DNA of 64,000 bases from a virus, in IMG/VR virus record IMGVR_UViG_3300009506_000016, positions 1 to 64,000 of that record; one strand, 5' to 3'. The position numbers and the translations under genes are program-made. The notes below the pieces were generated by a model. That model did not search any database. It had not been told where the DNA came from and saw nothing but the letters and a program-made list of their open reading frames with translations. Shown here in pieces: positions 5,702 through 45,328 of this stretch (position 1 is the first letter of the stretch; every line of letters starts with the position of its first letter).

Positions 5702-7483
5702 ATGGAGTACAATATGGATCAAGATAGTACAGAACAAAAATCCATGAATGAAGAACTCAGTAGCATGTATCGAGACATTGTAGATAATTGGGGAATCACT
5801 TCATTCTCCGATCTCGAAAATGTAGATCGATCAGAAGATGTTATTGACGATCTAATGACTCTGCAAGCCATAGCCGGGATCATGCTTGGTAACATTCGTG
5901 CTTATTCTGACGATAAAATAAGCGCCGTTAGAAAAATGCTAACCGAATATGATAGCATGGCGATGGCATTGCTGGACGAATACGAAAACCGGAGCGATAA
6001 CAAGGAAGAACGAAAAGTTATGTTAGATGAGTTATCAAACCTATTTAATGTATTCAGGTCAAAAGAGAAGAAATACAAGACTGAGGGCGGCGTAAAATAC
6101 AGCGCCAGCGACTATCTTTATGTTGGTGACTCAAGCAAACCTTCGACATGGAAACTTCGTATAGCAGAAGGGAGTTCGGGACATGTAACCATAGCTCAAT
6201 TAGGACGCGCCGCCGCCGCATTTTCAAGTGGCGGATTTCGTGGAAATAAAGTACAACTTCCATCTGGTGAGGCTGGAAAGATAAAGGCTAAACTACGAAG
6301 GTTGTACAAAAAGTTGGGTGCAAAGGATGAAGATATTCCAGAGAGTATTAAAAAAGAGCAACCGTTTATGTTGTTTAAGGATGCACTTGGGAATTGGCGC
6401 TGGTTTGCACGGTACTCAAACAATTATCGGGATAATGATCGACCTGCTGAGATTATTTCAAAACAGTCGCATCTCGATTTTGTAAAAATGGTTGATAGTG
6501 GTCAAGCACCCATGCCGGAACTTTGGCATTGGCACATCCCTGGAAGTAAATGGGGTGAGGCCGATTGGGTTGCTTATGATGAGGACAATGGAATTGCGAT
6601 GGCCGCTGGTTATGTCCTTTCGGGCCACGAGAAAGAAGCTGAGGCTCTTTCTGACCTTATTGATAGCGGCGAATTTGATCTTGGCGTATCTCATGGAATG
6701 CCAAGGCCAACGGTGAAGTATGATAGCGCTGATGACTCGATCATCGTTGCGCATATCACTAAAGAGATCAGCGACTTGCCTCTTTGGGCGGCGGCAAATA
6801 AGCTGACGAGTTTCTCTATATTCAAGGAGAAGGATATGGCTGTAATTTCTGCACAAAAGAAAGAATATCTGAAAGCCGTAGGTTTCTCCGATGAGGCTAT
6901 TGAGGACATTGAGGCCGGTAATAAAGCTCTGGCTGAGTTTGCAAAGCAAGCGGAGATCGAATCGAAAGAAGCGAGTGAAAATGAGAACGATGAAGCTCCC
7001 CAAGTAGATGAAAATCAAGCAGAAGCTGAGGCTCAGGAAAAAGAGCAGGAAACGCCAGCCGAAGATGTTTCAAGCGATGAGACAAAATCTGATGCGGAAG
7101 CCGATGAGCAAAAAGAAGGCGCAACTGTAGCGCTTGTTGGTGCTGTAGAAGTGGCCGATGCAATTGCTCAGGTTTCGAATGCGCTTATGGACGAGATCAA
7201 GTCGTTGAAGTCTCAGATCGATGACCTACGGAAAGAAAGGGATGAAGAAAAGGAAAAGCAATCCGCCACCCCGGATGAATATGTTCCTACTGCATCTCTG
7301 GCGGCAATGATCGCCAAACAACTGAGTGCTGTTGGATCGAAAGAAGCGGCAGTACACAAAAACTCTACTCTGGCTAAGAGTGGTCCTGACGAGACACCCG
7401 TTGAGGACGAAACCAATACCCTCGTGAACACTGGTAACCCTGTCATTGACAGTGTAATCTCCGGTGTGATTGGAAGGAAATAA
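5702..7483 (+). CDS. prohead protease / scaffold fusion
   Basis: Directly upstream of the capsid gene. Central YSNNYRD..AEII / HWHIPG / GVSHG pattern resembles HK97-type (S78-fold) proteases; acidic coiled-coil C-terminus. Confidence 0.7.
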   Translation: MEYNMDQDSTEQKSMNEELSSMYRDIVDNWGITSFSDLENVDRSEDVIDDLMTLQAIAGIMLGNIRAYSDDKISAVRKMLTEYDSMAMALLDEYENRSDNKEERKVMLDELSNLFNVFRSKEKKYKTEGGVKYSASDYLYVGDSSKPSTWKLRIAEGSSGHVTIAQLGRAAAAFSSGGFRGNKVQLPSGEAGKIKAKLRRLYKKLGAKDEDIPESIKKEQPFMLFKDALGNWRWFARYSNNYRDNDRPAEIISKQSHLDFVKMVDSGQAPMPELWHWHIPGSKWGEADWVAYDEDNGIAMAAGYVLSGHEKEAEALSDLIDSGEFDLGVSHGMPRPTVKYDSADDSIIVAHITKEISDLPLWAAANKLTSFSIFKEKDMAVISAQKKEYLKAVGFSDEAIEDIEAGNKALAEFAKQAEIESKEASENENDEAPQVDENQAEAEAQEKEQETPAEDVSSDETKSDAEADEQKEGATVALVGAVEVADAIAQVSNALMDEIKSLKSQIDDLRKERDEEKEKQSATPDEYVPTASLAAMIAKQLSAVGSKEAAVHKNSTLAKSGPDETPVEDETNTLVNTGNPVIDSVISGVIGRK

Positions 7484-7484
7484 A

Positions 7485-8894
7485 ATGAACCCTGATGAAA
7501 TTTTAGCTCAATTGATTGAGGGTCAGAACGCTGTTCTCAAAGAGGCGGCGGATAAACTAAAGACGGTTGGGAACTCACAAACTGCAAACAAGCTGCATGG
7601 CATCAATGGTTTGTGGTCTACTCCGGGCCTGGACCGTGAGGTTATTACTGCTCACGTTCGTCCGCATGGCTTTGCGAGTATGCTACCTGCACTTCCATCC
7701 GTCACGGAAGATCCGCGTTTCGCATCTCTAACCGGGATTACTGAAACAACTGGCACTCAGCCTACCGAGCCTTGTGATGACGCTCCTTATGCGTTTATGA
7801 AAGGCTGTAACCTGACGGCCCGGTTCGGCATTCTCCGTTTCGATACCAATACCATTGACATCTCGCAAACGTTCCGTCAAGTGAACCGCAGTGATTTCAA
7901 GGATCTGGTTTTGCGCGGACGCTTGCTTGGCCTGACTGATCTTCATCCCCAGGAACTGAGTGAATCTCAGGTCTTGGACGTGCTTACAAAAGCCGAAATG
8001 GTGGTTGCTGGCATTAGTGCCGAGCGCGAACTGAGTAAGCAAATGTGGCAAGGTATTACTACGGTTGCCGGGAACTTCCCTGGCCTGGACGTTCAGATTG
8101 CTACCGGGCAGAAAGACGCTGATTCAAGCGTTCTGTGTCCTGCTCTGGACAGTGATATCAAAGACTTCGCTTATGATCTGGTTGGCGGGGATGGGCGCGA
8201 CATTGTTGAGTATCTCTCGATGTTGATGTTCTACCTTGAAAACAATGCTATGACGATGGGTCTTGATCCCGTTAGCTTTGCTATCGTGATGCGCCCTGGC
8301 CTGTGGCAAGAACTAAGCGCGGTTTGGCCGATTGTTTACAATACTAATCGTGCGAACGCCGTTCCTACTGGCGCAACTCTGTTCGTGGATGGCCGGGATA
8401 ATATCTCTGACCGCGATACGATGCGGAGCGGAATGTTCATTGACATCAATGGCAAGCGCTATCCTGTGGTTGTGGATACTGGCATTTATGAGCACAACAA
8501 CATTAATGATGCAAACTTGCTGGCTGGCGAGTACGCATCGAGCATCTATGTTGTTCCTCTGAGCATCACCGGCAATATGCCTGTGACTTATCGTGAGTTC
8601 CTGGATTTCCGGGCTGGTGATAATGATAGCGCTCTCTTGCGCGGCATGAACACTTTCTGGACTGACAGCGGCGTTTACTCATGGGCTGTTGAGAATAACA
8701 AGTGGTGCTACAAGCTGAGTCTGCGGACTGAACAGCGTGTGATTTTGCGCACACCGCAACTGGCCGGTAAGATCCAGCATGTCAAGTATGTGCCTCTGCA
8801 ACACCTACGCGATCCTTATCCTGAATCACCGTACTTCGCTGATGGTGGTGTTAGTCTGCGTGACTACACTTCTGGCGATGCTGTGTGGCTCTAA
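7485..8894 (+). CDS. major capsid protein
   Basis: 469 aa from MNPDEIL. Follows protease/scaffold, has biased codon usage, a 'GNFPGL' motif typical of HK97-fold capsids, and a strong terminator downstream. Confidence 0.8.
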   Translation: MNPDEILAQLIEGQNAVLKEAADKLKTVGNSQTANKLHGINGLWSTPGLDREVITAHVRPHGFASMLPALPSVTEDPRFASLTGITETTGTQPTEPCDDAPYAFMKGCNLTARFGILRFDTNTIDISQTFRQVNRSDFKDLVLRGRLLGLTDLHPQELSESQVLDVLTKAEMVVAGISAERELSKQMWQGITTVAGNFPGLDVQIATGQKDADSSVLCPALDSDIKDFAYDLVGGDGRDIVEYLSMLMFYLENNAMTMGLDPVSFAIVMRPGLWQELSAVWPIVYNTNRANAVPTGATLFVDGRDNISDRDTMRSGMFIDINGKRYPVVVDTGIYEHNNINDANLLAGEYASSIYVVPLSITGNMPVTYREFLDFRAGDNDSALLRGMNTFWTDSGVYSWAVENNKWCYKLSLRTEQRVILRTPQLAGKIQHVKYVPLQHLRDPYPESPYFADGGVSLRDYTSGDAVWL

Positions 8895-39604: not shown

Positions 39605-39743
39605 ACAGAAAGTATAGTCGTGCAAAACGGTTGGCGGGATTCGAACCCGCCTTTTGCCATTAACCGTTATGGAGCGGCTGGTTGCTCAACCGGTACAACC
39701 TGTTCTTCTCCATTCGATGTAATAACCGACAAACAATCGTATA
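39605..39743 (-). ncRNA. structured rsr leader / Y-like RNA with a tRNA T-arm
   Basis: GGCGGG-UUCGAAU-CCCGCC stacked on an AACGGUU/AACCGUU helix; 5' end UACGA...GUCGGUUAU matches the Y-like elements. Confidence 0.65.
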
Positions 39744-39746
39744 ATA

Positions 39747-39775
39747 ATTATACCATATATTCGATCATATTGCAA
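39747..39775 (-). promoter_or_regulatory. sigma70-type promoter for the rsr leader and gene
   Basis: TTGCAA-17-TATAAT with extended TGn. Confidence 0.8.
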
Positions 39776-40365: not shown

Positions 40366-40413
40366 TTGACTTGCGTATAGCAAAAATGGTACAATAGAGG
40401 GTGGGAGGGAGGG
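40366..40413 (+). promoter_or_regulatory. antisense-oriented sigma70-like promoter followed by a G-quadruplex motif
   Basis: TTGACT-18-(TGG)TACAAT, then GGGTGGGAGGGAGGG at 40399-40413. Confidence 0.5.
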
Positions 40414-40418
40414 AATAG

Positions 40419-40643
40419 TTAAAATAGCATGTTGTCACCAAAATCTCGCCATTCCTTAAGCTCTTCCCTAATTCTCTCAGAATCAATAGCGAGTTCTTTC
40501 GACTCATCAGCATATCCCTTCATGATGCTATCGGGGATAGGATGATAATTCGCAATCATAACTATGATCTTAATAATAATGGTTAATAATCGAGTCATGA
40601 ATGCAAACATCTCAATAATCATTCTCTTATCATTTTTGTCCAT
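40419..40643 (-). CDS. small protein with a hydrophobic helix
   Basis: AGGAG SD; 74 aa. Confidence 0.65.
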   Translation of the reverse strand: MDKNDKRMIIEMFAFMTRLLTIIIKIIVMIANYHPIPDSIMKGYADESKELAIDSERIREELKEWRDFGDNMLF

Positions 40644-41175: not shown

Positions 41176-43353
41176 CTAATAATCAACTTTCACATCACGA
41201 ATTGCGAACGTGAAGTGTTTGTCATCAAGATCAACCTCAGCGCCATCACGGGTGTCAAGATCGGGGAACCATTGTTTGCACAGCAAGACAGCAAACCGTG
41301 TTCTCTGGATCTTATCACGCACATTTCTCAAATCATTCTTCACGCGATTGAGACTCGCCTTTGCATATTCCAGGGTCGATAGCGGATCTTTTGAGTTAGG
41401 CATATTGTTCTCAAATGATTTTATGACATCGGACATAAGTTGATTGGATGGTGTGAGTTTCTTTCCGTCAGCCATTTTTGACAACACGTCATCAATCTTT
41501 GGAGCGCTGGAATATCCCTTGATCTTTACCTCAAATTCCTTGGCGAAGTAGTGATCGATGCTTTCTTCCTTGTCTACCGGTGGTGAATATAAGCGATCAT
41601 GCTTAATCCCGTAGGTTTCAAGGAATTCGATCTGCTCGTTCGTGAATTCGCTCGTGACTTTTTCCATGATCCCGGTTGGATCTAATTCCTTGATCTTGTT
41701 GTTCAGGAATTTTTGCATGAACGTAAGCTCAAGCTCGTGATCCAGCCACCCACAATATTCGGTAGATGTTGGCGCAGTGGCAATCTTCTTGTTCACCAGA
41801 GGAACAGCACCTAAGTCAACAAGATAGATTGTATCTTCATCGTGTTCATCATAGTAGTTATCTGGTAGCATACCAGCATCGACTAACCGATGAAACGTGT
41901 CATAACTCATTGACACTGGAAGGGTGGGCGTGTTCAAGATGCTATCTTTGACCAGGGTGTAGTTGCGATATTGATGACACTGGAAATACTCTCTGAGGCC
42001 AACATGCACAGCATCAGGAAGATTAACATGTCCAGGAATTTTTGCAAGGATGGAAAGATTCAGGCGTTTTTGATTCCATGTCAGATGATTGAATGGACAG
42101 GCCGTAGTAGAGTCTGCAAAGAATTTTGGATATCCATCGCGTGTCTTTGTGGGTACGCCGGTGCGCTTGTAGTTGAACAACTCGTGGCGTGGATAGAAGT
42201 ATGCTTTGCTATCTGCCATAAGCAAGTCAATAGCATCAAGCAAGCAAAACGCATCATCGGCTGGAACAAAATCGGTATCTTGTCCCTCAATGAACCTGAA
42301 CGCCTCAGAATCAAGTGATAGCAACATGCTGTTTTGCGCATTGCCATATTCCTCATTTGTGAATGCGTTGTTCACTTCTTTGATCAATGCAACTTCGCCG
42401 ATAGATCCAAGCATCTCAATAGCAATGTCTGACTTTGCGGAAGAAACAAATGCGTATGCCAGGGCCACAGGAGCAACGTATGATTGCTCATACGTCATTG
42501 ACGAAACCGTATCATAATGAGTCAGATCGTGCATGTGATTGATATCAGCAAGGACATAGATGGTGTTAGCGTTCTCTGGAACGTATGTTACAGCATCCAT
42601 AGTGTTGAGTATCTCAACAGGATACTGCTGGACGTTGAAGCCATCGTATCCAACTACCATCAGAGGTTGCATAACTGGAAGTGGTACTGAAACGCGCAAC
42701 GCCTTCTCAGATCCAACAAATTGCTCCATGCTCGAATCAAACTCGGTAAGGTGGCTGGAATGGATAAGAGTCCCGCCGATATTCGCTGTCATCTGAGCCA
42801 TAAGCTCTTTATTATAGTAGTCACCATAACCAACCAGCATCACAGACGAAACTTTGTCGTTCAGCGCACGCATGGTATTGAGAATTTTTTGTACTTCCTG
42901 TTTGTAGTTACTTACAACCGGATATCCGTCCGTCATAAACATGAGCGATACGGTTCCAGGAAGTGCGGAAAGATTACCGATGATGTTATCATAGGTATCT
43001 GCCAGGATCTCAGAAAAGCATGTGAGGCCTACAACGCTTTTGTATTTCTGTAATGCACTTTTTACAGTATTTTGGAATGACGAATTAACGGAAAGGCCGA
43101 TAAAGATCCAGCCAAACTTCCCGTTTTCAGTTGAAAACCAACCGATTGATAAGGTATCTCCATCGCGGAGTTGCTTGGAACGCTCAACCATATCATCAAC
43201 CAATTGAGGCAATGTATAATACATTGATCCAGAACGGTCAAAGATCCAAACGTGATTTGTAGGATCAGGAACAGAAGCCTTTTCCTCAGAGCGATCCAAT
43301 TCGATAGCGAACAAGTTGTACTTATTCTTTACAGGGGCTACAGATACTTTCAT
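41176..43353 (-). CDS. large vWA-domain protein (725 aa)
   Basis: N-terminal MIDAS DRSGSM, GLT, MTDGY; C-terminal half unassigned. Confidence 0.8.
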   Translation of the reverse strand: MKVSVAPVKNKYNLFAIELDRSEEKASVPDPTNHVWIFDRSGSMYYTLPQLVDDMVERSKQLRDGDTLSIGWFSTENGKFGWIFIGLSVNSSFQNTVKSALQKYKSVVGLTCFSEILADTYDNIIGNLSALPGTVSLMFMTDGYPVVSNYKQEVQKILNTMRALNDKVSSVMLVGYGDYYNKELMAQMTANIGGTLIHSSHLTEFDSSMEQFVGSEKALRVSVPLPVMQPLMVVGYDGFNVQQYPVEILNTMDAVTYVPENANTIYVLADINHMHDLTHYDTVSSMTYEQSYVAPVALAYAFVSSAKSDIAIEMLGSIGEVALIKEVNNAFTNEEYGNAQNSMLLSLDSEAFRFIEGQDTDFVPADDAFCLLDAIDLLMADSKAYFYPRHELFNYKRTGVPTKTRDGYPKFFADSTTACPFNHLTWNQKRLNLSILAKIPGHVNLPDAVHVGLREYFQCHQYRNYTLVKDSILNTPTLPVSMSYDTFHRLVDAGMLPDNYYDEHDEDTIYLVDLGAVPLVNKKIATAPTSTEYCGWLDHELELTFMQKFLNNKIKELDPTGIMEKVTSEFTNEQIEFLETYGIKHDRLYSPPVDKEESIDHYFAKEFEVKIKGYSSAPKIDDVLSKMADGKKLTPSNQLMSDVIKSFENNMPNSKDPLSTLEYAKASLNRVKNDLRNVRDKIQRTRFAVLLCKQWFPDLDTRDGAEVDLDDKHFTFAIRDVKVDY

Positions 43354-43394
43354 TGTGTGTCCTTTCGAATCGAATACGAATTAGACTTACAACA

Positions 43395-43465
43395 TGGACC
43401 GTAAGAGATTCGAACTCTATCTTCTCGTTGCAACGGAGATGATCTGCCATTTGATCTAACGGCCC
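43395..43465 (-). tRNA. tRNA-Ala(UGC), atypical anticodon and T stems, no encoded CCA
   Basis: GGGCCGU/ACGGUCC acceptor stem with G3:U70 and A73, GAUC D-stem, UUCGAAU T-loop. Confidence 0.75.
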
Positions 43466-43474
43466 ATTTTATCT

Positions 43475-43828
43475 TTATGGAACAGGATAACTAACATCGG
43501 GAGCCGGGTACGGCTCTACAGGAGCGGGGTATCCGATATCTTGTGTTGGCCGAACAATTCTTCGTAGGAATAAAGGAATAGTAGCTTGAAGGTCTTCTTC
43601 GTGTTCTCCGCTTTCGTTTTCGTCATCTGTTGAGTTATCGGTTGTGTTAATAGCATTCATTTCAATGTTCTTTGGAACACGAGTTGGAGTCGAAAAAGAT
43701 ACTACGGCAGGATCATTGTTATCGATCATATAAGCCTTAGCTCTGTTTTTCATTATACCAAACATGATAAAAGCGAGAATGAATGATACAAATAGAATAA
43801 TTATCGTTTTTTGTTTTAGTGAGGTCAT
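43475..43828 (-). CDS. membrane-anchored Pro/Thr-rich protein with YPAP repeats
   Basis: Start MTSLKQK; transmembrane helix; C-terminal GYPAPVEPYPAPDVSYPVP. Confidence 0.7.
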   Translation of the reverse strand: MTSLKQKTIIILFVSFILAFIMFGIMKNRAKAYMIDNNDPAVVSFSTPTRVPKNIEMNAINTTDNSTDDENESGEHEEDLQATIPLFLRRIVRPTQDIGYPAPVEPYPAPDVSYPVP

Positions 43829-43850
43829 TGTTGCCAACCTTAAATAAGTG

Positions 43851-43887
43851 GCCCGGTGGGTAAGGAGGTGAAAAAAACCCACCGGGC
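43851..43887 (-). ncRNA. hairpin displaying the 16S anti-SD sequence UCACCUCCUUA
   Basis: Perfect 10-bp stem GCCCGGUGGG/CCCACCGGGC; loop UUUUUUUCACCUCCUUA. Confidence 0.55.
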
Positions 43888-43900
43888 GCTCAATATTGAA

Positions 43901-44038
43901 CACGGTAATGTGGTGAGAAACCGGTTTAGCTCTGGCCGGGATTCGAACCCTAGAGCGAACAAGTATTACTCGTCCAGCAACCACGCCACTAGCCATCATA
44001 GTCTGGTAGATAGATAACAGTCTCTCTTTCGTACCGCG
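43901..44038 (-). ncRNA. Y-RNA-like element Y6 (138 nt; T-loop, cloverleaf-like interior)
   Basis: CGCGGUA-C-G...UUACCGUG lower stem; GAGAGACUG/CGGUUUCUC upper stem; UUAUCU; GGG-UUCGAAU-CCC. Confidence 0.75.
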
Positions 44039-44051
44039 AAAGTCTATTTTC

Positions 44052-44130
44052 ATTCGGTAATAAGTTGCGCTCGATAAAAAACTTCTGTACTGAAGTTTAC
44101 CGAAGGTAACCGAAGCGCGGCGTACCGAAT
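44052..44130 (-). ncRNA. Y-RNA-like element Y5 (79 nt, minimal)
   Basis: AUUCGGUA-C-G...UUACCGAAU; upper stem GCGCUUCG/CGAGCGC; GUUACCU. Confidence 0.75.
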
Positions 44131-44150
44131 CTTTATTAGGTTGTTAAAAC

Positions 44151-44226
44151 AAGGTAATAAATTAGCGCTCGATTTATTAGTTTCGTTTCATATACAAAGT
44201 TTGGTTATCGAACACAAGCGTACCTT
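44151..44226 (-). ncRNA. Y-RNA-like element Y4 (76 nt, minimal)
   Basis: AAGGUA-C-G...UUACCUU; upper stem GUGUUCGAU/AUCGAGCGC. Confidence 0.72.
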
Positions 44227-44238
44227 ATTATCTGTCTC

Positions 44239-44335
44239 GTGGGTGATGCGCCTATCACCCACTTATTCCATTCCGCACCGCAACCAACTTGAAGGAGCTT
44301 GACCAAGGAGATCCCGGCGGCGCTCACCGGTGAGC
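44239..44335 (-). ncRNA. structured element with two CUCCUU-displaying loops plus flanking hairpins
   Basis: GCGCCGC/GCGGUGC encloses GAUC-UCCUU-GGUC and AGC-UCCUUCAA-GUU; GUGGGUGAU/AUCACCCAC hairpin at 44239-44262. Confidence 0.5.
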
Positions 44336-44350
44336 CTTGCTAAGTAATAA

Positions 44351-44481
44351 TCTGGTAATGTATTTGATCACCATGTTTAGCGTCTTAACCACTTAGACCA
44401 CACGGAGCCTCGGCTCACAGGTTGGGATTCGAACCCAAATATCTCTGCCCAAGTCAGATAACAGTGATCTTCCGTACCAGA
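44351..44481 (-). ncRNA. YrlA-like Y RNA Y3 (131 nt; permuted tRNA mimic)
   Basis: UCUGGUA-C-G...UUACCAGA; UUAUCU; T-arm UUGGG-UUCGAAU-CCCAA, then a closed acceptor-like hairpin GAGCC/GGCUC, then D-arm GUCU-AAGUGGUUA-AGAC. Confidence 0.85.
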
Positions 44482-44495
44482 AAGATTCAATAATA

Positions 44496-44639
44496 AAGTG
44501 GTAATAAAAGTAGGCTGGACATTATTTTTCCTCTGCCATTGAGCTACACACGGATCTTCTTTTTCCGCATGACGGGATTCGAACCCGCAACCTATTGTTG
44601 TTTATACAATTGAGATAACCCAACCAATCCGTACCACTT
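44496..44639 (-). ncRNA. YrlA-like Y RNA Y2 (144 nt; permuted tRNA mimic)
   Basis: AAGUGGUA-C-G...UUACCACUU; GUUAUCUCAAUUG; T-arm GCGGG-UUCGAAU-CCCGU, acceptor CAUGCGGA/UCCGUGUG closed by a loop, UA, D-arm GCUC-AAUGGCA-GAG. Confidence 0.85.
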
Positions 44640-44656
44640 AAGTTTTCAATGTTCTG

Positions 44657-44724
44657 GCGGTATTAAGATTGCAGTCGATTTAAGAGTCTGTATACTTGTA
44701 GATAACCGACTTGCTTCGTACCGC
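44657..44724 (-). ncRNA. Y-RNA-like element Y1 (68 nt, minimal)
   Basis: GCGGUA-C-GAA...AUACCGC; upper stem GCA.GUCGG/UCGACUGC; UUAUCU. Confidence 0.75.
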
Positions 44725-44734
44725 ATCATCATAG

Positions 44735-44798
44735 TCGCTTGTGCCGTTGGGTTTGACTTAAGGAGGTCCATAGAGTAGCTAGAACTCGGGACAAGCGA
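44735..44798 (-). ncRNA. structured element with an anti-SD loop (GAC-CUCCUUAA-GUC)
   Basis: UCGCUUGU/ACAAGCGA closing stem; first element after the promoter. Confidence 0.55.
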
Positions 44799-44833
44799 TG
44801 AACCGTTATTTGTTTTTGTTCTAGCATGTATAT

Positions 44834-44862
44834 ATTATACGACTATTCAGAATTATTGTCAA
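44834..44862 (-). promoter_or_regulatory. perfect consensus sigma70 promoter driving the ncRNA array
   Basis: TTGACA-17-TATAAT; predicted TSS near 44827. Confidence 0.88.
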
Positions 44863-45328
44863 TAGGCAATTTTTCTTGGTCGTTATCTTTCTGAGTAACT
44901 GACTTCATTGCTTTCTCATAACGATCTTTTGAGATAAATACAAGCTCGTTCTCAAAAAGAACAGCGAATTGAGGTCGATAGCCAGTTTTATCGTGATGCC
45001 AACGAGCAGACGAATGAATAAAACTGTCATCATCACTCCAATATTTATTAACAAAGCGATCATTGATATCATCGCCAGCAATATTGACATAATCTTTATT
45101 ACTAGCCGCGTAGTAAAGAAAGATATCATCAATCTTTGACGGAAGATCAAATTCATCATCCATATTCACGTCAAGAGCTTTGCATAGGCCAGATAATTGT
45201 AACTGATACCAGTAAGGAATATATGGATCACGGCGATGCTTGTAGAGCGCCCGGATCAACAACTCCACTTCCTTTGACGACACTTTCTTTTCGCGTAAAA
45301 GCTGAATGGTTGCTCGATACTTTGACAT
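44843..45328 (-). CDS. hypothetical protein
   Basis: Start MSKYRA with AAGGA SD. Confidence 0.65.
   Translation of the reverse strand: MSKYRATIQLLREKKVSSKEVELLIRALYKHRRDPYIPYWYQLQLSGLCKALDVNMDDEFDLPSKIDDIFLYYAASNKDYVNIAGDDINDRFVNKYWSDDDSFIHSSARWHHDKTGYRPQFAVLFENELVFISKDRYEKAMKSVTQKDNDQEKLPIDNNSE

Follow-up and report, generated by a model that had tools for sequence, protein, structure and literature searches.

Introduction

Small RNAs (sRNAs) with C/U-rich seeds complementary to the Shine-Dalgarno (SD) sequence are found in Alphaproteobacteria, where they include the 'cuckoo' RNAs CcsR, alpha-r14 and NfeR1, and in Bacillota, where they include RsaE/RoxS and LhrC. The known representatives are chromosomal, stand-alone genes that have their own terminator and carry CCUCCUCCC or UCCC as seed. 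Hairpin RNAs with small pyrimidine-rich loops have also been described as bound to Ro60 by Chen et al. (PMC4201824), and the Y-like RNAs Yrl1 and Yrl2 of phage phiLo bind the host PNPase (PMC12135203). Here we analyze a 64,000-nucleotide stretch of viral DNA (hereafter, the window), corresponding to the first 64 kb of the 77.6-kb IMG/VR virus record IMGVR_UViG_3300009506_000016, in which an array of Y-RNA-like modules is interleaved with three non-Y segments, elements i, ii and iii, that carry copies of the anti-SD motif CUCCUU. We report that element iii is a robust hairpin, conserved in related loci, and that this anti-SD hairpin is probably a functional RNA module.

The resemblance of the locus to C/U-rich seed sRNAs lies in the display of a C/U-rich, SD-complementary tract within a hairpin or unpaired region, with several copies per locus possible, and in the combination of a conserved loop with a stem that may change freely. 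It differs from them in that element iii lies within the predicted transcript of a phage Y-RNA array, has a run of U residues 5′ of its CCUCCUU and is not followed by a terminator. The anti-SD seed loop is of a known kind; what is new here is its embedding in a phage Y-RNA array. Like the RNAs of Chen et al. (PMC4201824), element iii is a hairpin that has a pyrimidine-rich loop and shares its locus with Ro60 and YrlA-like RNAs, but elements i-iii lack the Ro60-binding helix. They share a transcript and a locus with RNAs of the YrlA and phage Y type (RF02553; PMC4201824; phiLo Yrl1 and Yrl2, PMC12135203), and in one relative (L155, below) the motif appears as the cargo of a module with Y-type arms, yet they themselves have neither Y arms nor a tRNA-like domain. 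The last point of comparison is the 16S rRNA tail of Escherichia coli rrsH, to which the loop of element iii is identical at 11 of 11 nt (13 with the precursor). Unlike that tail, which is a free 3′ end after helix 45, the loop is closed by a GC stem and preceded by U7, and the relatives keep 7 nt of the match.

The roles of Y RNAs in bacteria and phages beyond tethering Ro60 to PNPase are an open question, and a loop complementary to ribosome-binding sites (RBSs) that is predicted to be co-transcribed with Y modules suggests that the Ro60 system may be linked to translation or to the ribosome, which is open to testing. The locus also adds a well-defined example to a seemingly widespread, undescribed phage habit of placing anti-SD sequences in stable hairpin loops. 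The strength of this example resides in an unselected test of stem covariation and in the four loci available for comparison.

Results and discussion

Structure and strand of the anti-SD elements

Element iii (43851-43887, minus strand) was identified as a conserved anti-SD hairpin from its fold and from its counterparts in relatives. It has a GC-rich stem of 10-11 bp (GCCCGGUGGG / CCCACCGGGC) and a loop of 15-17 nt, U7-CACCUCCUUA, with a minimum free energy (MFE) of -22.8 kcal/mol (z -5.2). In the partition function of the whole transcript, its motif has a probability of being unpaired, P(unpaired), of 1.00. The tract UCACCUCCUUA within the element is identical to the 3′-terminal 11 nt of rrsH of E. 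coli K-12; the agreement reaches 13 nt when the precursor is counted, whose following two bases (CC) also match. The initial annotation, made from the letters of the window, had described a 10-bp stem with a loop ending in the last 11 nt of 16S rRNA, and the comparison with rrsH bears this out.

The other two elements are likewise defined by their predicted fold on the minus strand. Element i (44735-44798) is a 64-nt domain with an 8-bp closing stem (UCGCUUGU/ACAAGCGA), ACCUCCUUAAGUC inside and CUCCUU at 44765-44760; its MFE is -16.5 kcal/mol (z -2.25), and its motif is moderately open, with a P(unpaired) of 0.78. A hairpin inside a closed stem had been proposed for it, and the closing stem is solid, but the inner GAC/GUC hairpin comprises only 3 bp and is absent from the centroid structure. 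Element ii (44275-44323) is a domain closed by the helix GCGCCGC/GCGGUGC, which includes one G-U pair, and holds two copies of CUCCUU; its fold is no better than that of shuffled sequences (z -1.3). Two adjacent hairpins had been read into it; of their two copies, only the second is open (P(unpaired) 0.79), whereas the CUUGG of the first copy is paired with UCAAG in the MFE structure and that copy is mostly paired (0.35). Folding predicts, in sum, an exposed SD-complementary tract in element iii, in element i and in the second copy of element ii, and a largely closed one in the first copy of element ii. The notion that the three elements are separate RNAs is not borne out; they are three non-Y segments of one predicted transcript. 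Among them, only element iii is a robust hairpin that is also conserved, the remaining two being weaker copies specific to this lineage.

The sequence confirms the presence of four CUCCUU copies in less than 1 kb, all on the minus strand: besides the copy in element i, there are two in element ii (44310-44305 and 44297-44292) and one in element iii (43867-43862). They are the only minus-strand copies of CTCCTT between 30 and 59 kb. Within the 982-nt array, four copies were reached in none of 5000 dinucleotide shuffles, and two copies in 2% of them; outside the Y-module motifs, CTCCTT and GAGCGC are the only 6-mers of the array that recur at least four times. The CUCCUU cluster is real and non-random. 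GAGCGC precedes both element ii and element iii, and the two have a common 5′ context, GAGCGCC..CCGG..GGG (44324-44337 and 43888-43895, minus strand), which suggests that they are duplicates. Element ii is also preceded by a 14-nt perfect palindrome, GCUCACCGGUGAGC.

The motif-bearing minus strand is almost certainly transcribed, judging from the signals that surround it, for it carries the promoter, every Y module, the two tRNAs and all of the genes that flank the array. The promoter scan called a consensus sigma70 promoter, TTGACA-17 nt-TATAAT, with 12 of 12 matches (44834-44862, minus strand), from which a transcript should start near 44827, and the promoter is followed by about 1 kb without a credible open reading frame (ORF; 44862 to 43851). 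As had been anticipated, G-U pairing in the closing helix of element ii favors the minus strand: the single G-U pair makes the minus-strand fold (-17.7 kcal/mol) better than the plus-strand fold (-11.1 kcal/mol) by 6.6 kcal/mol.

One alternative places the function on the plus strand, where the AAGGAG/GGA elements would act as SD sites of small ORFs, as a ribosome sponge or as a CsrA sponge. The GGA triplets would indeed sit in hairpin loops on that strand, and element i folds slightly better there (-21.5 versus -16.5 kcal/mol). We nevertheless regard this alternative as highly improbable and rejected its SD-site and CsrA-sponge variants. No promoter-like site was found on the plus strand upstream of 43851-44798, the only one called being downstream, at 45322, and none of the four plus-strand AAGGAG copies is followed by a start codon at a usable distance. 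This includes the longest SD copy, TAAGGAGGTGA, for which the lack of a properly spaced start codon had already been pointed out and which is followed by A7-CCCACC, with no ATG, GTG or TTG within usable reach. In addition, every neighboring RNA gene and ORF is encoded by the minus strand, both element ii and the anti-SD element of L122 (below) are less stable on the other strand, and the terminators found in other phages follow the hairpin in its CU-rich orientation. A CsrA/RsmA sponge would present GGA loops in the transcribed strand; here GGA lies on the promoterless plus strand, antisense to the RNA genes.

Conservation in related loci

Two metagenome contigs, L154 and L155, were fetched with a profile of a 725-aa protein (41176-43353, minus strand; phrog_2426, with an invariant, MIDAS-like DRSGSM motif) and its five best homologues. 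Their versions of this protein are 51% (L154) and 48% (L155) identical to that of the window. In L155, which is syntenic with the window, a DUF5131 gene is followed by a promoter close to consensus, then by a Y array that comprises six modules and a tRNA, and further on by the 725-aa protein and Ro60 (44% identity). Each contig has, on its Y strand, a counterpart of element iii, with a 9-bp stem and the loop GUUUUUCGCCUCCUUUUA in L154 (1-36) and an 11-bp stem and the loop UUUUUAUGCCUCCUUUCU in L155 (1170-1209). Stem pairs were registered by hand from the loop-proximal end, MAFFT alignments having misregistered the stems. In this register, the stems of the window, L154 and L155 differ at 6 of 9-10 positions, with every position forming a standard pair. 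This covariation is unselected, because the loci were found through the protein and not through the hairpin. L155 contains a second copy, UUUCACCUCCUUGG (motif CACCUCCUU), which lies within a module with Y arms and is predicted to be mostly unpaired (0.67).

A third locus, L122, came from a noisy IMG/VR scan with the pattern GGTACG-N9-10-GGTTATCT, in which one real Y locus was recognized. The locus lies in a phage record of 169 kb that also encodes a Ro60 (41% identity), and its Y modules bear the 5′ arm GGUACG-(9 nt)-GGUUAUC. Some 1.3 kb past the second Y module and on the same strand (7396-7508, plus strand) lies a domain of about 110 nt with a 12-bp closing stem and U5, inside which a 13-bp, G-U-rich hairpin presents the loop UUUCCCCUCCUUUU. 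G-U pairs favor this strand, on which the element folds at -48.6 kcal/mol (z -4.8), compared to -36.6 kcal/mol on the other strand. Upstream of the element come Ro60, a pair of Y modules, a tRNA and an ORF of GIY-YIG-like type, and a search for relatives of the L122 Ro60 returned only L122 itself.

These four loci (the window, L154, L155 and L122) hold the only GC-stem hairpins with a U-run and a CCUCCUU loop in about 2.3 Mb of sequence that was not fetched with the motif. What is conserved across the relatives is the CCUCCUU heptamer and the upstream U-run only. The expectation that the loop would be conserved despite turnover of the stem thus holds for element iii in all four loci, but not for elements i and ii, no counterparts of which were detected in L154, L155 or other relatives.

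Conservation also bears on the possibility that the non-Y segments are structural spacers (processing sites, insulators or exonuclease blocks) in which CUCCUU has no function of its own. Arrays do contain motif-free hairpins of similar geometry, such as the one at 1733-1767 in L155, with a 15-nt loop, and the plain 9-bp hairpin without anti-SD motif that the fold places after element ii in the window (44239-44262, minus strand; GUGGGUGAU, 6-nt loop), and elements i and ii are not conserved and have weak internal folds. Against this stand the retention of the loop sequence while stems change in four independent loci and the fact that four copies were never reached in the array shuffles, and we consider a purely structural role very unlikely.

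The hairpin module is not exclusive to Ro60 systems. An IMG/VR scan with the pattern GGGTTTTT-N2-4-CCTCCTT-N1-3-CC returned 52 stretches, mostly with trivial stems, among which several have perfect stems of 6-11 bp. They include the family formed by L239, L242, L270 and L271, whose loop UUUUUCGCCUCCUUUU is identical over 16 nt to that of L154, and likewise L265, L266 and L278. No Ro60 was detected in the records with motif-retrieved hairpins, which are incomplete. In the L242 family and in L278 a stop codon precedes the hairpin and an intrinsic terminator distinct from it follows, read in the direction in which the loop is CU-rich; the L242 family has additional CU-rich tracts on either side. 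The stretch at 8340-8480 (minus strand) of L242, also present in L239, L270 and L271, consists of a CU-rich leader, the 11-bp hairpin, a CU-rich tract and a strong intrinsic terminator, and is apparently a small RNA of an unrelated phage family. All nine hairpins listed keep the CCUCCUU heptamer, although for five of the nine it was part of the search pattern. Hairpins with a GC stem and a CCUCCU loop were also observed just downstream of tRNA genes in L287 (around 545 and 1527, plus strand) and in L301 (around 3546, plus strand), the latter with a 10-bp stem and the loop CCUCCUUGAUC.

More distant loci were reached through Ro60 and through the Y modules. A blastn search of the array against a GenBank phage collection gave no match. 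The best matches of the window's Ro60 in IMG/VR and GTDB genomes have 41-45% identity, all relatives being at or below 45%. Immediately upstream of Ro60, these loci have Y arrays of a different type, with GGGCCGGA as 5′ arm. A further sample of Y loci was drawn with the pattern GGTTATC-N15-30-GGTTCGAATCC, many matches of which are true tRNAs. The association between hairpin and Y array holds for the four loci in which the predicted Y modules have a 5′ arm of the form GGUACG-(9-11 nt)-GGUUAUC in common. Cellular Ro60 homologues (39-45% identity; L138, L139, L151 and L152) include those of Candidatus Parabeggiatoa and Thiomargarita from marine sediments, which provide at most a faint hint on host range.

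Several other identities were considered for the elements and rejected. Element iii does not qualify as an intrinsic terminator: its loop of 15-17 nt contains the U-run, no 3′ U-run follows the hairpin in the window (3′ flank CACUUAUUUAAGG), L154 or L155, and the scan called no minus-strand terminator. Elements i-iii are not Y RNAs, as both arms of the Ro60-binding helix (GGUACG..GGUUAUC with AUUACC) are absent from all three and neither cmscan nor ARAGORN detected a tRNA-like domain in them. A cmscan search of 43300-45000 gave no match to an Rfam family of anti-SD sRNAs (e.g. ar14/cuckoo) at E <=10, a threshold at which element iii hit no Rfam family of any kind, and no gathering-level Rfam matches were found in L154, L155, L242, L265, L266, L270 or L271. 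Cis-regulation was contemplated for the downstream ORF (43475-43828, minus strand), which encodes 117 aa from an ATG at 43828, with an N-terminal membrane helix and no Pfam match, and has a weak UAAGG RBS 8 nt past the hairpin that might form a CCUUA:UAAGG pseudoknot with it. It was discarded as a general role because the hairpins of L154 and L155 are succeeded by Y modules and not by an equivalent ORF. Capture of a host fragment spanning 16S rRNA, internal transcribed spacer and tRNA-Ala was likewise discarded, given that the stems covary and that the relatives carry Gly(UCC) and Asn(GUU) tRNAs; the tRNA-Ala(UGC) gene of the window lies at 43394-43466 (minus strand).

Possible function of the anti-SD loop

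Functional display of the anti-SD sequence by element iii is likely on these comparative grounds. We propose that the single strong promoter would drive an untranslated RNA of about 1 kb, comprising six Y modules and three non-Y segments, in which the stem of element iii would keep the pyrimidine loop (the U-run, then CCUCCUU) open. The exposed loop could then pair with AAGGAGG-NN-AAAAA on mRNAs and mask the RBS, in the manner of the C/U-rich seed loops of known bacterial sRNAs, with elements i and ii serving as weaker, lineage-specific extra copies. We infer that the locus is transcribed, that separate RNAs are processed from the transcript, that mRNAs are bound by pairing and that there is any connection to Ro60. 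That the loop acts in this way, by pairing with the SD sequence and an A-rich spacer on mRNAs, is the best-supported reading, to which we assign somewhat less than an even chance. It draws on the composition of the conserved loop (U-run, 2-4 variable bases and CCUCCUU), which is the complement of AAGGAGG plus an A-rich spacer.

Potential partners occur in the phage itself. Element i is complementary to CUUAAGGAGG-type RBSs of the phage's own gene cluster at 69-71.3 kb of the genome, its best predicted duplex being with GACUUAGGAGGUC before the gene that starts at genome position 71264 (-21.7 kcal/mol). The flanks of element i also bind phage RBSs better than shuffled flanks do (P = 0.007). For elements iii and i, the best partners predicted are the RBSs of two genes of the genome (G000:C1 70716-70800 and 71264-71340, minus strand), which lie outside the window. 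These two genes have strong RBSs, UUAAGGAGGAUGAUAAG-AUG and GACUUAGGAGGUCAUU-GUG, and each is preceded by a small GG-UGUGAG-UCCG hairpin motif that may be a phage regulatory signal.

A number of results weigh against this reading. The result for the flanks of element i is partly due to an extra C completing CCUCC, and the same test is not significant for element iii and both copies of element ii (P 0.67, 0.29 and 0.15). No phage site matches the full loop of element iii within 3 mismatches. The phage's own genes use AAGGAG/GGAGG RBSs, in agreement with the earlier remark that they use AAGGAG, and a generic blocker would therefore also hit the phage unless timing or affinity selects its targets. 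Among the Y loci of the other type, the arrays with GGGCCGGA-type 5′ arms beside Ro60 show no CTCCTT enrichment (6 copies in 11.9 kb, the chance level), and 20 such loci (GGCCG type) from the further, independent sample yielded a single weak anti-SD hairpin, which speaks against a general association of Y loci with such hairpins. The place of the hairpin within the array varies, from the end in the window to the start in L155 and a position before two Y modules in L154, and the comparative set of four loci is small. Finally, a search of public sequencing runs listed no RNA run containing the stretch.

The identity with the 16S tail admits a different interpretation, in which the loop mimics the tail and serves as bait or decoy for a factor that recognizes it. 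Candidates include an anti-phage ribonuclease similar to MazF-mt3, which cuts UCCUU, an exonuclease that trims the 16S 3′ end (e.g. PNPase) or another tail-binding protein. Such mimicry would account for a match to the mature 16S end of E. coli that is exact over 11 nt (13 nt with the precursor) and for the presence of UCCUU in every copy, and it would suit a neighborhood that resembles a set for RNA repair and mimicry (Ro60, Y RNAs with tRNA-like domains, tRNAs and an RNA ligase). We consider it quite unlikely, however, for the relatives keep only the 7 nt of CCUCCUU and not the longer 16S match, and the conserved 5′ U-run has no counterpart in 16S rRNA, which has GGAUCA there. UCCUU is not depleted in the mRNA-sense sequence of the phage (42 observed, 49 expected), which leaves no trace of pressure from a UCCUU-cutting toxin, and we know of no characterized anti-phage system that targets the 16S tail. 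Sequence alone does not separate SD pairing from a tail decoy, yet it leans to SD pairing: a U-run without 16S counterpart and the retention of just 7 nt of the 16S match favor it over strict 16S mimicry.

It is also plausible, if on balance unlikely, that the partner of the U/C loop is not mRNA but a protein domain that binds single-stranded RNA (the KH/S1 domains of PNPase, ribosomal protein S1 or Hfq). The loop of element iii is almost purely pyrimidine, with a conserved U-run, and the L155 motif is carried by a Y module; there is precedent in the pyrimidine-rich loops of Ro60-bound hairpin RNAs (PMC4201824) and in the binding of host PNPase by the phiLo Y-like RNAs (PMC12135203). On the other hand, elements i-iii lack the GGUACG..AUUACC arms of the Ro60-binding helix, the hairpin type also occurs in phage records without detectable Ro60 (incomplete as these records are), and the exact CCUCCUU in all nine hairpins (five of them motif-retrieved) shows a specificity beyond what a generic pyrimidine tract would require.

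A connection between the hairpin and Ro60 could take the form of a cargo or partner of the Ro60/Y particle, carried inside a Y module, as in L155, or beside the modules, as in the window, L154 and L122, and linking Ro60, and via it host PNPase, to the translation apparatus. Two routes could be envisaged: the hairpin could guide the particle to SD-bearing mRNAs, or it could imitate the 16S 3′ tail to capture a factor acting on the ribosome. We rate this proposal as doubtful in either arrangement. A hand-off of mRNAs to Ro60/PNPase, as once suggested, is speculation, the sole hint being the L155 motif inside a Y module. If the cargo proposal were true, Y RNAs would gain a sequence-specific targeting function that has not been described so far.

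Locus and genome context

The phage is uncultured, and the sole public sequencing run that contains the stretch is a DNA run from a marine sediment metagenome. From about 30 to 59 kb, the minus strand forms a single, minus-coding gene block of about 29 kb that contains a Ro60 orthologue, the 725-aa protein, an RNA ligase, a DUF5131 protein, tRNA-Ala and tRNA-Gln. The phage Ro60 (37973-39625, minus strand) was recognized through matches to the TROVE and Ro60 vWA domains. The 725-aa protein, for which 452 homologues were obtained at E <=1e-20, sits between the Y array and Ro60 both in the window and in L155, and most of its distant homologues have no Y array adjoining.

The six Y-RNA-like modules, which provide the context of the elements, span 43903-44724 (minus strand; limits approximate), with element ii interrupting the series. 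They have a 5′ arm, GGUACG..GGUUAUC, and a 3′ arm, AUUACC, and the 5′ GGUACG motifs are located at 44722, 44635, 44478, 44224, 44126 and 44035. Three modules (Y2, Y3 and Y6) have GGUUCGAAUCC T-loops, at 44585, 44435 and 43949, and cmscan reported a weak YrlA match only in Y2 (44528-44594). A further element resembling a Y RNA or a tRNA, which contains GUCGGUUAUUAC and the T-arm GGGUUCGAAUCCC, was observed just upstream of the Ro60 start (39620-39750, minus strand), and an odd tRNA-like call (ARAGORN 'tRNA-???') likewise precedes Ro60 in L155 (6191-6266). After the stop codon of a small ORF there is a C-rich tract, UUCCCUCCCUCCCACCCUC (40395-40420, minus strand), which holds the only other sense-strand copies of CCUCC in the minus-coding block.

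Depletion of CCTCC in the window (26 observed versus 62 expected) was dropped as evidence on the anti-SD elements because it is mild, on both strands, with a Markov expectation (35 versus 53), and because other words are far more depleted, in a manner typical of restriction avoidance. Across the whole genome, the words avoided on both strands include CGACG (0 observed versus 34 expected), GCAGC (5 versus 71), CCCAG (19 versus 84) and CCTCG (20 versus 73), a pattern that looks like restriction-site avoidance.

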